Origin: Eledone cirrhosa
Lineage: Eukaryota
Length of the DNA: 64,000 nt
Direction: 5' to 3'
Assembly: GCA_964016885.1 (NCBI GenBank)
Contig: OZ024745.1
Span: 88,598,001-88,662,000, forward strand
A program made the translations under genes and the position numbers. Under the pieces are notes generated by a model. It made no database searches. It saw only the letters and a program-made list of their open reading frames with translations, and was not told the DNA's origin. Numbering within the stretch: the stretch's first letter is position 1; every line of letters starts with the position of its first letter. Shown piece after piece: positions 23,801 to 43,228 of this stretch.

Positions 23801-24018
23801 AACGAAGGAAATGTGGTAAGGAACCAGGTGGACCATAACGCACCAAAGTACTCGATACTTGATGTAGTAGAGTGGGTAATAGGAACCAGTAAGACCCCGA
23901 CAGCTGAGCTCAAGCCGTTTCGACGGCTAATTCTGGACTAAAATTAGTCCAGACATTTAGTCCAGAATTAGCCGTCGAAACGGCTTGAGCTCAGCTGTCG
24001 GGGTCTTACTGGTTCCTA
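23801..24018. repeat. Fold-back element, family F
   Basis: Arms 23879-23942 / 23956-24019; long arm extends to 23801; (TA)n on both sides. Confidence 0.92.
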
Positions 24019-25419
24019 TATATATATATATATTCAGTTCTTTCGTTGCTACAGACCACGCGGCTGAATTACCGGTCGCTATCTTAAACTTGCAAACCCC
24101 TTTAAACTGTATGTTATTACTCTGAGTTCTATACCTTGTCGATTACTTCGCTGCACTGCTGAAGGCATTCTTCGGCTTAGCTGCGGCTCGAACTTCGAAT
24201 ATGCTGTACTTTCATTTGTATTACTATCTCCTAGACCTAATGATTAATTGATTAATTTAATTTGACAATTCCATTGAATGGTTAATTATTTATGTTTGTT
24301 TAATTACGGTCTGGTTGAGTGCTTAATTCAGTTTGTGTATGGAAATTTTTCCATTGCTCATAATTTGAACTTGAACGCCGTAACCCGGGGTTACCTCTCT
24401 TTGGCGTAACATGTGCTATCACAACCGGATTTGTGTCAGAACGAAAATCTGTTGGGAAAGTAAGTCCACTGATCGATCTTCCACCAACTTAACTTTTATA
24501 CACGACAAGCGAATTTTGTTGATTTCGGATTTTCAGAAACCTGACTGAGATATTGAATAATTTTGAAGTGATGGTCCAGGTTTGTTATATATATATATAT
24601 ATATATATATATATATATATATATATATATATATATATATATATATATAAAAGATGTAAAATAAGCAAATTATAATAATTTAGACACTTACTTAAATTTC
24701 ACTCCAACTAATTAGTTTCTGAAAGGGGATATACATACTCTTAGATCTATACCTTGTCGAGTACTTGGCTGCACTGCTGAAGGCATTCGTCGGCTTAGGT
24801 GCGGCTCGAGCTTCGAATATGCTGTACTTTCATGTGTATATATATATATATAAAAACTATTTCTAGCCATGATCCAAAATAATTGGAGTCAGTAGATCGA
24901 ATAAGGGAAATTATTACGACTTGCAATTTAACTCGGTCTTATCCAGCTAACTATAAATTAGAATCTAGCATTCTTCAAATTTAACAATATTCGTTTCTGA
25001 ACTTTTTTTCAATCTTTAGAAAGAAATTCACTACTACTTTCAGTTTCGATTTGATTGGAACAAAACACACACAGACACACACACACACACACACACACAC
25101 ACACACACACACACACACACACACACACACACACACACACACACACACACACACACACACACACACACACACACACACACTCTCTCACACACACACACAC
25201 ACACACACACACACACACACACACACATAATACACACACACACTCTCTCTCTCTCTTATACACACACTCGCACTCTCTCTCTCACATTAATATTCACACT
25301 GTCAATTTCACAAGCACTCTCACCCTCATTCTCTCTCTCTCACACACACTCACTCACTCTCTCACGTTCACACTCATGGGCAAACGTACATTTATCATTG
25401 AGATTATACAGCTGTTTCA

Positions 25420-25737
25420 AGACGCGTGGCTTTGTGGTTAGAGTATTCGATTCATAATCGTATGGTCGTGAGTTCGATTCTCGCCAGCTGTTGTGTTCTA
25501 GAGCAAGCAAATTTATTTCATCTTGCTCCAGTTCACTAAACAGACAAACATGAGATGTTCCTGTTTTTCGAAGGGATAACCTTGTTACATTCTGTGTCAC
25601 GCTGAATCTCCGTGAAACCTACGTTATGTGTACGCGTGTTTGTGGAATGCTCAACCATTCGTACATTAATTTCACGAGAGGTTGTTCAGTTGATCGCAAC
25701 AACTAGAACACTCGTCGTCGTAACCGACGGAGTGCCT
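25420..25737 (+). mobile_element. tRNA-derived SINE (third family)
   Basis: gcgtggctttgtggttagag (A box), gagttcgattc (B box), tgttctagagcaag; short (CTA)n tail. Confidence 0.75.
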
Positions 25738-26085
25738 CTACTACTACTAAACAATTTTTGCTCTACTTGACACATTGAATAGTACTGATTATTCTGTGAA
25801 TGCACGTGGTTTAGTGGCAAGGGTGTTGGATTCACTACAACTAAATTGTTCAAATTTGGACCCCAGCCATTTCGGAAACGCTTCCACTGACCCTGATATA
25901 TTTATATATATATATATATGCTTTATATATGTATACATATACATAGATATATGCTTTCAAATAGTATATATATATATATACGCGCACGCGCCTGTGTGTG
26001 TAGGTCTCGAGTAAATTCGAGGGTAACCACAGTTTATAAGATACTCATTACATTATTTGAATGTAAACATCATATTTATTATAGA

Positions 26086-26188
26086 AAGGGCCTCTACAGG
26101 AGTAGAGGTATTTAATTCGTAATAAAACATCAGGAATTCCTGATGATTTCATACGAATGAAACAGCTCTAGTGCTGTAAAGGCCTCTT
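26086..26188. repeat. Diverged fold-back centred on GAATTC (26134-26139) with HHR core in the right arm
   Basis: CTGATGA-tttc-atac-gaat-GAA-ACAGC-tctagt-GCTGT-A at 26140-26178; 5' strand of stem I lost at the apex. Confidence 0.75.
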
Positions 26189-26258
26189 ATATATATGTGT
26201 GCGTGTGCGTGTGTTTGTGTTGGTGTTTGTGTTTGTGTTTGTGTGTATATATATAATG

Positions 26259-39925: not shown

Positions 39926-42023
39926 GATGTCTTAAATAATATAATGTTGTTTATATAAAGATAGAATGATCACAGCCATGGTGTACTTGACGGTAAACAA
40001 CATATTATTCAGAATAACTGTTTCTAACATAGGCATTAAGTAATTAATTTTTTAGTGTGGTTTGTTAAATTTAATCTAGCAAAATGCTTAATCAAAGCTG
40101 TTTGACCTGATGGAAGTAGCCGTCAAATCCTATTCAAGGCACATTTTAAATGATACATTACATAATGTAATTCTAAATATATGAAGCGTGACAAAATATT
40201 TGATTGACAATTTGGTCCATCAGAACTAAATTCGGATGAGAACTGGTTCTATAATCTAATGAGCCCTGTCGGATGTAAGAACAACATCAATAACATTAGT
40301 TAAAACGGAGAAATCTAACCTAAAAACACAGACAGGAATTATAGGCAAATGGATGAGACCCAATAGAAGTGACCTTAACATTGTATTGATGCTCGTTTTA
40401 TTGACGAATGAGTGAACAGGAAACAAGAAAGCCTCTACATATACTCTCAGGACCCAAATAATAGGGGTCGGGTGGAATAAACGTGGGGTTTGATAGAAAA
40501 TCGGTATTTTTTCTAGGTTGTCTCCGTTGAATTTTTTTTAAACCAGAAGTGATCGTTTAGTTTAGATATTGAGACCCCAACCGATCCGAATTATTTTATA
40601 ACGTAACGGGATTTCTAGCATTTTTTAAAATGTATATAGAAAATTAATTGTCGCAGGAATCCTAGGTCTCGATTATTCGAGAACCGAGAGTAGGTTTAAT
40701 CAATTAGAATTCCTTCATATATAACACACTGCATCTCATAAACAAAAAAAGTCATAATATAATCCTAGATACTCATAAAAAATGCCTTATAGTCTGCAAT
40801 TGGACGCTTTTGTTCATAAGTCTCAATGGGGTTTGACTTAGAGCTAAGCAACATCAACAATATTCAGATAGGAGGGGTAAGAAAATCAAAATCGACCGCA
40901 GTGGTTTTAAATCAATAATCTAGAAGAATAAAGCTGAGTAATGAAAACAACAACAAAAAAACAATTATTGAGAACAGCACACTCGTATTTCTGTCATTCT
41001 AAACGCTTATTAGTAATGTATATAAATATTATATATATTATCAGAATTATCAAGGGGATGCGTTGACAGAAACTGTACGGCAATTACCTACGTTCTTGGT
41101 TCGAATTTCAACGTGGTTCATTTTAACATTAACCCACTGAGTTTCCATAAATTAAGGTCCGAGTTACGATATATGAGGTCAATAATACTTTCAGATTATT
41201 TTTACTGAATTTCCTAGCAAAACCAAATCAAGAATGTAATCGATATTTTACTATAAACATTTCGGAGGGGAAGTAATAATTACCCTTTAGGAATTAGGAT
41301 TGATTCAATAAAACCTTTCCCCTGTTAAACATATATGATTTGGTGTCGATGCAAGGAACTATTATTTATATTTATTTACATGGTTAAAGGTGTGTTTGCA
41401 ATGTGTTAACTCAAATACATACAGGTTAGGAATGGTTACATCAATTACATTGTTGCAGGCTTTGCGTGTTTATGTACTATTTTATAACTGTTATTGGACA
41501 GAAATTGGACTCCTATTGAATTGACATTATGTAAATATTTTTCTGCATGTTTAGTAGTATGGACTGTAACATGCGTACAAGAAATCGATCTTGAAATATC
41601 TACCTATATATATATAAATATATATATATATATAAATGATAGAGGTTTACATATACATAAACTAGACAGAGCCATATATATATATATGTTTTTGGCAACC
41701 TGTGGTTGATTATGCTGATTGGGAGCAGAAATACTGTATATATTTTATCAAATGATTCTATGGACTTACTTTCTTATATATATATATACATACACACACA
41801 CATATATATATACATAAATGTATATGTATATATATATATAATATATATTTATATATAAATATATATATATATATAAATATATATACACACACGCACACAC
41901 ACACACACAAACACACACACACACACACACACACACACACACACACACACACACATAGAGTTTAGAACCCTCTAAGAAATGGAAAAAGATGAGTATTGAT
42001 GTACAACATGCATATATATATAT

Positions 42024-42249
42024 AAGGAAAGGATCGATCGACTTTCGTCAAATCGGACCGAGGAAACAATGTTTTCGTCGGTCTTTCGAGTTGCTAGTCC
42101 TATCTATCGGTCGCAAATCCTGGTAGAAGGTCCAACGTGAAATAAAGCGTCTTGCTCAAGGACATAACGTAACGACCGGTCTAGGAATCGAACTCACAAC
42201 CTCAAGATTGCGAATCAAATTCTCTAACCGGCCAGCCACACGCCTTCAG
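42024..42249 (-). mobile_element. Full-length SINE S2
   Basis: tRNA-like head, tgtccttgagcaagac core and 3' part; in (TA)n. Confidence 0.8.
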
Positions 42250-42555
42250 TGTATATATATATATATATGTATATATATATATATATATATATATATATAT
42301 ATATATATATATATATATATATATATATATATATATATATATATATATATATATATATATATATATATATATATATATATATATATATATATATATATAT
42401 ATATATATATATATATATATATATATATATATATATATATATATATATATATATATATATATTTATTTATATATATATATATATATATATATAAATACAG
42501 TGAAGGCGTGTGGCTGAGCGGTTAGAGAATTGGATATATATATATATATATATAT

Positions 42556-42815
42556 AAATTTTATTATACATATTTCAGAAGTACAATAGTACGTCCTCAT
42601 CAGACAAAATATAATGATATATGACATACCCTGAGATGTTAAATGGTTAAGATTTAATCAAGGTACCTTGATTAAATCTTGACCATTTAACATCTCAGGG
42701 TATGTCAATTTTCATTATATTTTCTCTGATGAGGACGTACTGTTGTACCTCTGAAATATGTATAATAAATTTAATTGATCAAAAGAACATCTATTTTATT
42801 AATATTTGTATTCTA
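42556..42815. repeat. Fold-back centred on GGTACC (42662-42667) with two outward-facing family A HHRs
   Basis: HHR on minus at 42560-42612 and on plus at 42717-42771 (CTGATGA-ggacgtac-tgtt-gtacctct-GAAA). Confidence 0.92.
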
Positions 42816-43029
42816 ATATATATATATATATATATATATATATATATATATATATATATATATATATATATATATATATAAAAAGAATTGATACAATTGC
42901 GACCAAAAAGTACATATAAATGTTCGATATATATATATAAATGTATCAATTGTTTATATATATATATATATTAACTTTTGATACAATTATATATATATAT
43001 ATATATATATATATATATATATATATATA

Positions 43030-43228
43030 TAGGAACAAGTAAGACCCCGCCGGCTGAGCTCAAGCCGTTTCGACAGCTAATTCTGGACGTCCAGAATTAG
43101 CCGTCGAAACGGCTTGAGCTCAGCCGTCGGGGTCTTACTTGTTCCTATTACCCAATCTACTACCCTAAGTATTGAGTACTTTGGTGCGTTATGGTCCACC
43201 TGGTTCCTTACCACATTTCCTTCGTTTT
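43030..43228. repeat. Fold-back element, family F, apex GACGTC (43086-43091)
   Basis: Right arm GAA-ACGGCT-tgagctc-AGCCGT-C-ggggtc is the 3' half of a hammerhead. Confidence 0.92.

Follow-up and report, generated by a model that had tools for sequence, protein, structure and literature searches.

Three hairpins and one solo copy within a 64,000-nt stretch of the Eledone cirrhosa genome (3.0 Gb; assembly GCA_964016885.1, contig OZ024745.1, positions 88,598,001 to 88,662,000; hereafter, the window) carry one half of a hammerhead ribozyme and derive from a Penelope-like element (PLE). Ribozyme positions are numbered from +1, the A of a conserved (T/C)AGT; GAAA is at +19, cleavage is predicted after +41, and arms end at site B (+61) or site A (+139). 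The A arm of copy A is at 23801..23942 (minus strand; from -3 through +1 at 23939, with GAAA at 23921, the predicted cut after 23899, site B at 23879, and a 78-nt tail to site A) and its B arm is at 23954..24019 (plus strand; -5..+61, with +1 at 23959, GAAA at 23977, the predicted cut at 23999/24000, and its end at site B). Between them, 23943..23953 (plus strand) is a short duplicate of -2..+8 that may reflect re-copying at the template end, and (TA)n target sequence flanks the copy at 23711..23800 and 24017-24032. Copy B has a B arm at 32745..32802 (minus strand; subfamily S1b, 5' end at about +4/+5, ending at site B) and an A arm at 32801..32937 (plus strand; from about +2, with GAAA at 32818, the predicted cut at 32840/32841, site B at 32860, and a tail to site A). 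In copy C, flanked by (TA)n on both sides, the B arm is at 43029..43088 (minus strand; +2..+61) and the A arm at 43089..43227 (plus strand; from +2, with GAAA at 43106, the predicted cut at 43128/43129, site B at 43148, and a tail to site A). Copy D is a solo A arm at 12359..12461 (plus strand) that starts at +37, 5 nt 5' of the predicted cut at 12363/12364, and continues through site B at 12383 and the tail to site A, followed by (TA)n.

The initial annotation had reported three hairpins with GAAAC, stem III, GTC, and GGGGTC, and they are present as head-to-head inverted repeats whose arms each carry this series and are complementary at 61/61, 51/54, and 57/59 positions in copies A, B, and C, respectively. 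The description of them as palindromic holds for the ~60 paired bp and fails for the elements as wholes, one arm having the extra 78-nt tail, and embedding in (TA)n applies to copies A and C and not to copy B, which is sited in (TATG)n-like sequence. Apices are as near to GAAA as described (15-16 nt in copy B and 17 nt in copy C; in copy A a 19-nt spacer ends 18 nt before GAAA). They fall in the stem II/loop II region, toward the 3' side of the parent's long loop II or at the top of the 3' strand of stem II, but the apparent stem II of a hairpin is the reverse complement of the other arm rather than the 5' strand of the parent. Likewise confirmed are the missing 5' strand, both DNA strands being free of CTGANGA and TTGANAA within ~100 nt of each hairpin, and the start of copy D 5 nt before the predicted cut, a start that does not coincide with the cut itself. 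Among the best 150 of 176 Rfam matches in the window (E<=1), no hammerhead match falls on these copies, only microRNA-like hairpin noise, and the HH9 matches belong to another family at 10121-11860.

The origin of the hairpins from a PLE, proposed on general grounds, is borne out by a parent element with a 3531-bp tandem unit and an open 717-aa frame. This single open reading frame (ORF) contains YRDD and VIY..YIG, corresponding to a reverse transcriptase (RT) with a C-terminal GIY-YIG endonuclease as in EN+ PLEs; neighbors of the protein in the Atlas (0.94-0.98) carry HTH_animal, GIY-YIG, and RVT_1, and direct Pfam scans of pieces of the ORF matched no family. The parent is apparently young, with an open ORF and, among perfect 3531-bp tandem units, two neighbors that differ by 1 nt. 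Three of the 30 best matches extend upstream into the 1.2-kb untranslated region (UTR), two of these three reaching the end of the GIY-YIG frame, and one near full-length partial tandem (L097) forms an arrangement of the pseudo-long terminal repeat (pLTR) type. At 3551-3606 of that locus, a perfect ~23-bp hairpin of non-element sequence adjoins the 5' end of the near full-length copy. Head-to-tail arrays of four whole units, ~3.53-3.54 kb apart, are at G000:C1:437200365-437211091 and C1:91476485-91487245; two checked units are 1 nt apart, as expected for rolling copying of circular or multimeric RNA. A candidate intron after site A in locus L004 was rejected, the sequence being mariner flank.

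Motifs, rather than a tree, place the parent as a probable member of the Hydra clade. It has DKT, a CxCx5C linker, CxxC and CxH around E/N, no CCHH, and (TA)n targeting, with RWR in place of RWK; the set of DKT, CxCx5C, CxxC/CxH, and one Cys within GIY..YIG is given for this clade (PMC8557442). Inverted 5'-truncated copies with an optional tail at one end, typical of PLEs, are represented by 67 pairs of an A arm and a B arm plus long examples. An assignment to Neptune or Nematis was rejected, given a linker that is CxCx5C and not CX2-5CxxC and only one Cys inside GIY..YIG, with no CCHH. Non-long terminal repeat retrozymes, treated for animals in a preprint (10.64898/2026.07.22.740005), were also rejected, as the 5' half is missing from the short copies, which occur either head-to-head or singly, and the tandem units are coding.

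The parent has the features of a type I hammerhead, with a 3-8 pair, a variable N7, G10.1-C11.1, GAAA, NUH, and three stems, and the arms match its 3' half, as had been proposed from the hairpins themselves. In 52 distinct parent sequences, a set biased to subfamily S1 and including overlapping loci, the core is TTGAGAA in 38, TTGACAA in five, TTGATAA in five, and TTGAAAA in one, and is damaged in three; thus, TTGANAA is present in 49/52, with one-base variants in the remainder, followed by G(C/T)TC(G/A)GCTA. Position 7 of the core is variable and U3-A8 is constant, a variant known from Schistosoma PLEs (PMC4209133). The initial annotation had instead expected a parent with gacccc-CTGANGA-gacggctaattctggac. 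There is none among the 52 parents, a pattern permitting C3/G8 returned T3/A8 types only, and a scan of the window for CTGANGA found other families only. In 10 parents from three subfamilies, hammerhead stems are paired in 90% of cells and stem II has a two-sided G-C to A-U change, evidence of modest weight because the sequences are related. Loop II is long, with 27-29 nt upstream of (T/C)AGT. Self-cleavage after C17 is predicted, and the monomer's minimum-energy structure differs from the hammerhead (z -0.43). An alternative hairpin at +12..+27 of the parent RNA, joining the stem II 3' strand with the stem III 5' strand, is predicted to compete with the hammerhead fold.

Arm architecture was censused in three sources: 1.0 Mb of arbitrarily chosen sequence from five large contigs, the window, and tail queries. 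The last contributed 57 loci (three duplicates dropped) and cover S1b and S2 more than S1, as the S1 tail by itself, made up of words that are too common, gave no matches. The arbitrary stretches contain ~35 insertions (clusters merged by hand), two of which are long pairs. The repeat class makes up roughly 0.7% of the sampled DNA, and extrapolation from the 1.0 Mb suggests on the order of 10^5 (roughly 100,000) copies in the genome. Across 73 adjacent head-to-head pairs, 67 are A+B, none is B+B, one was scored A+A, and five are unclassed. In each of the 67 pairs, one arm ends at site B and the other 78 nt further, at site A; the parent sequence has TAT directly after each site, which matches the target. 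Starts of the longer arm fall within -13..+12 in 64/67 pairs and within -5..+9 in 53/67, and apices cluster in the stem II/loop II region. On the 5' side, the B arm extends more than 12 nt beyond the A arm in 21/67 pairs, the A arm exceeds the B arm by as much in 10/67, and the A arm is tail-only, starting at +48 or later, in 11/67; long B arms are combined with tail-only inverted A arms in L041, L106, and L110. Solo B arms and solo A arms both occur, (TA)6-7 lies between the two arms in L339 and L346, and arms of discordant haplotypes are found in L003, L013, and L026. In five loci (L003, L019, L020, L217, and L218), the same type of apex junction recurs, in which GC stands before +2 and follows short pieces that were copied again; simple microhomology does not explain it.

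Contig depth in public run X1, a rough measure from a run whose type is not on record, mirrors these boundaries, at ~3.6-4.0 million over +1..+139, compared with 0.11-0.41 million in the adjoining upstream sequence and 0.002-0.02 million within the ORF. It rises ~tenfold at +1 and falls ~thirtyfold after site A. Short products reaching +1 exceed long copies ~15-fold. One haplotype is found in 31/241 short copies and 0/49 long copies, which hints that some short copies act as masters; given the query bias of the long set, we do not use this difference as evidence.

Diagnostic variants are shared by the arms of a locus. In 70 arm pairs, a set that includes query-biased loci, 40 are identical at 10 sites and 57 have at most one difference, the corresponding figures between loci being 7.5% and 18%. 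The suggestion that each palindrome formed independently is therefore upheld, as arms agree within loci and differ between loci. The same data bear on an origin at the DNA level, either as a foldback element or miniature inverted-repeat transposable element (MITE) or as a palindrome derived from one ancestor after insertion. Short inverted repeats in a TA context resemble such elements. Nevertheless, ends are asymmetric (A and B), apices differ among loci, there is no fixed internal structure, and arms follow three or more retrotransposon subfamilies while matching within loci. A MITE or foldback DNA transposon was rejected on these features, in agreement with the initial annotation, and we consider a DNA-level origin very improbable.

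The initial annotation further proposed that a cDNA snaps back on ribozyme stem II and primes itself, such that the fold dictates the architecture of the insertion. Stem II is real in the parent and apices cluster beside it. But such products would retain both loop II (~27 nt) and the 5' strand of the parent, and there are none in the window or in any locus examined; the 5' strand of the parent's stem II does not correspond to the left arm of the hairpins, which is the reverse complement of the right arm. Nor does the ribozyme fold set the architecture, because inverted arms of long copies have apices throughout the UTR and ORF, and in two other hammerhead families of the window apices are ~105 and ~310 nt from the core. 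Of the explanations weighed here, snap-back on stem II is the one we regard as having the least chance of being correct.

A more plausible form of self-priming, although still unlikely, is fold-back at run-off, in which a cDNA primed at site A reaches the RNA 5' end, folds via 1-4 nt, copies itself, and becomes linked to the target at the site B TAT. An earlier proposal for palindromic PLE junctions was self-priming on an antisense template (PMC3846280). Such fold-back would account for the 35/67 pairs with both arms near +1, the agreement between arms, and recurrent junctions with a 4-6 nt loop. It cannot produce the 21/67 pairs in which the B arm has sequence absent from the A arm, nor the 11 tail-only A arms, nor solo B arms with an extra G (described below), (TA)n between arms, or discordant haplotypes. 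These classes contradict the claim that all hairpins came from a single folding cDNA. Two primings are needed because an A-primed cDNA that folds back cannot write sequence it has not copied and a B-primed cDNA cannot make the tail. Fold-back at run-off may nevertheless add to the symmetric class.

We favor twin priming from two fixed RNA sites, with run-off at a predicted capped start (+1) within loop II, and give this reading a probability of roughly 0.7. In the proposed mechanism, an RT-endonuclease dimer would introduce a nick in each strand of a (TA)n target, one cDNA being primed at RNA site A and the other at site B. RNA starting at +1 would hold only the 3' half of the hammerhead plus both priming sites, and priming at site B, 61 nt from the RNA end, or at site A, 139 nt from it, would yield short run-off products. 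Both cDNAs would run off at the RNA 5' end, or the A cDNA would stop early, often near B, and the two cDNA ends would be joined via 0-4 nt of microhomology. Shared variants suggest that both cDNAs usually come from one RNA or source and sometimes from two. The long copies and tandem arrays would come from longer read-through or circular RNAs, a subset of which the ribozyme appears to cleave. Copies would thus be half-ribozymes because the start site splits the motif, not because of fold-back on stem II.

The boundary at +1 is sharp and often carries an additional base. In genome-wide exact patterns, the base between (TA)nT and +1 of solo copies was scored: G accounts for 145 cases, A for 32, and C for 20 (A and C split by hand), where 145/197 is the share among G, A, and C only, with the T class and direct joins at +1 outside the count. 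The same test at +12, in the same local T-AG context, gave two matches and no G, a tiny control. The parent has T or C at -1, with the exception of G in one long locus (L286). Five of the first nine extra-G cases end at B and four at A. The diverged subfamily S2 has the same +1, and in all subfamilies +1 lies within hammerhead loop II, single-stranded in the proposed fold, and has an initiator-like YYAGTYY. This context fits the initiator consensus. We infer that +1 is a start of RNA polymerase II. Untemplated 5' Gs in L1 and SVA have been read as copying of the cap (PMC4859970), and by analogy the extra G at +1 would be the usual mark of a copied RNA cap, predicting a capped start.

Several points weigh against this reading, among them the limits of the two counts just given. 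The 5' ends scatter over about -5..+9, and BLAST places match ends only to within a few bases. One candidate, a TATA-like box at -30, was dropped since it is in S1 and not kept in S2, and no downstream promoter element was identified. The capped start is predicted from genomic copies. Among the 30 loci that include the 5' UTR, some of which belong to shared arrays, one starts at ~+1, six at +22..+96, and 23 further upstream, and because only one starts at ~+1, RNA from +1 is not the main template of full-length copies. The symmetric pairs and the variants shared by most arms are also predicted by fold-back, and later deletions could mimic some of the asymmetric pairs.

Some of these points are shared by an alternative in which +1, instead of being a start of transcription, reflects RNA processing or stalling or drop-off caused by RNA structure, with twin priming still producing the inversion. 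The location of +1 within loop II in all subfamilies, the lack of a conserved TATA, and the small number of full-length copies starting at +1 are in its favor. In opposition, the extra G found in 145/197 cases at +1 compares with 1/16 direct joins at the predicted cut (hand count among the matches listed), and +1 is single-stranded in the proposed fold. A splice acceptor at +1 was rejected as well, the copies keeping AG at the boundary. A stall at +1 is therefore judged improbable, less so than a DNA-level origin and more so than fold-back at run-off.

Besides the peak at +1, genomic 5' ends form a second, G-poor peak where the ribozyme is predicted to cut. For a pattern covering +36..+42 there are 284 matches, the first 100 of which, counted by hand, represent 55 independent loci (four nearby duplicates dropped); 25 of these start at +42, nine are ambiguous, and 21 are spread over +36..+41. 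Ten cut-end examples are short copies ending at B, at A, or within the tail. The peak at +42 fits uncapped ends from ribozyme cleavage of read-through RNA, with positions downstream of the cut uncontrolled, and a stop after the G run is a possible origin as well. If the cleavage reading is true, the peak would be a footprint of PLE ribozyme cleavage in vivo, unlike the Anolis study discussed below.

These elements can be combined into a broader and more tentative picture, to which we give slightly less than even odds. The PLE would have a capped start inside its own hammerhead, so that its mRNA begins with a non-cleavable half-ribozyme followed by both RT start sites. A dimeric enzyme that routinely primes both target strands would be the general origin of the inverted copy plus tail in PLEs. 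It would have seeded ~10^5 palindromes, some possibly self-propagating in the manner of short interspersed elements, and the second, uncapped RNA end would be the trace left by a U3-A8 hammerhead that cleaves in vivo. In the standard published picture, a PLE has an inverted, truncated copy bearing a tail on one side (PMC8557442), and the same source states the origin of the inverted 5' copies and one-sided tails as unresolved; this family offers genomic evidence in large numbers for twin priming. We found no published account of this mechanism: none of the papers listed makes a case, in PLEs, for twin priming, for a signature of cap copying, or for transcription starting within the hammerhead, with subscription papers and supplements outside the search. 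Hairpins of this class could be misfiled as MITEs or microRNA hairpins.

Comparisons with known systems place the family within PLE biology while distinguishing its short copies. Like Hydra-clade PLEs (Craig et al. 2021, PMC8557442), the parent has a single ORF with RT and C-terminal GIY-YIG, DKT, RW(K/R), CxCx5C, CxxC/CxH, no CCHH, a hammerhead, and (TA)n targets, as well as inverted 5'-truncated copies with a tail at one end. It differs in having a 3.5-kb unit, those of the clade being generally under 3 kb, a tail of 78 nt instead of the 30-40 nt of PLEs, a U3-A8 core, and, by extrapolation, about 10^5 copies that are mostly +1 run-off products. In vitro, the Poseidon PLE of Anolis (Frangieh et al. 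2024, PMC11167929) similarly has two internal RT start sites that bound the tail, nicking and extension of both target strands, AT-rich targets, and a predicted dimer. Initiation is non-homologous there, whereas TAT follows both sites here, and no RNA ends were found at the ribozyme cut there, whereas a genomic peak of 5' ends is at the cut here; the parts of that study available to us make no link to head-to-head insertions. The present family links genomic evidence for twin priming to this 2024 in vitro result, and provides exact positions (+1, +42, +61, and +139) and a young source with an open frame.

In twin or dual priming of L1 (PMC2837659), a second nick also primes an inverted cDNA at an internal RNA site and there is little microhomology at the junction, but pieces of L1 do not overlap and sites are variable, whereas in the present family priming occurs at two fixed sites and a palindrome results from the usual overlap of the cDNAs. 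Minimal hammerheads of PLEs (Cervera and De la Pena 2014, PMC4209133) share the U3-A8 core, long helix II, palindromic loop 3, and motifs close together on opposite strands; they differ from the short copies with the 3' half only, and a start inside loop II, as predicted here, is not described in the accessible portions of that paper. Penelope of D. virilis (Schostak et al. 2008, PMC2377424) likewise has a start site and a TATA-less internal promoter in the pLTR. Its start, unlike that predicted here inside the ribozyme, is upstream of it, 46 nt before an intron that has its end in helix I (PMC4209133).

The window contains other PLE and hammerhead sequences, and its repeats resemble those of octopuses. 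Pieces of other PLE ORFs are at 19908-22004 (plus strand), 2036-3653 (minus strand), and 3998-4368 (plus strand), with 30-46% identity to the 717-aa parent protein. The family at 10121-11860 consists of 469-bp tandem units with a complete CTGATGA-type core, the source of the HH9 matches, which are weak, and a 367-bp inverted copy whose apex is ~105 nt before the core. A third hammerhead-like family with a CTGAAGA core, at 46602-47629 and also at 12885 and 16469, forms an ~1-kb head-to-head repeat in (TA)n with its apex ~310 nt from the core. Hammerhead-like CTGAYGA...GAAA motifs also recur in (TA)-rich DNA as a further dispersed family, at 5679, 9159, 42603, 42726, 44619, 46060, 46438, and 48014.

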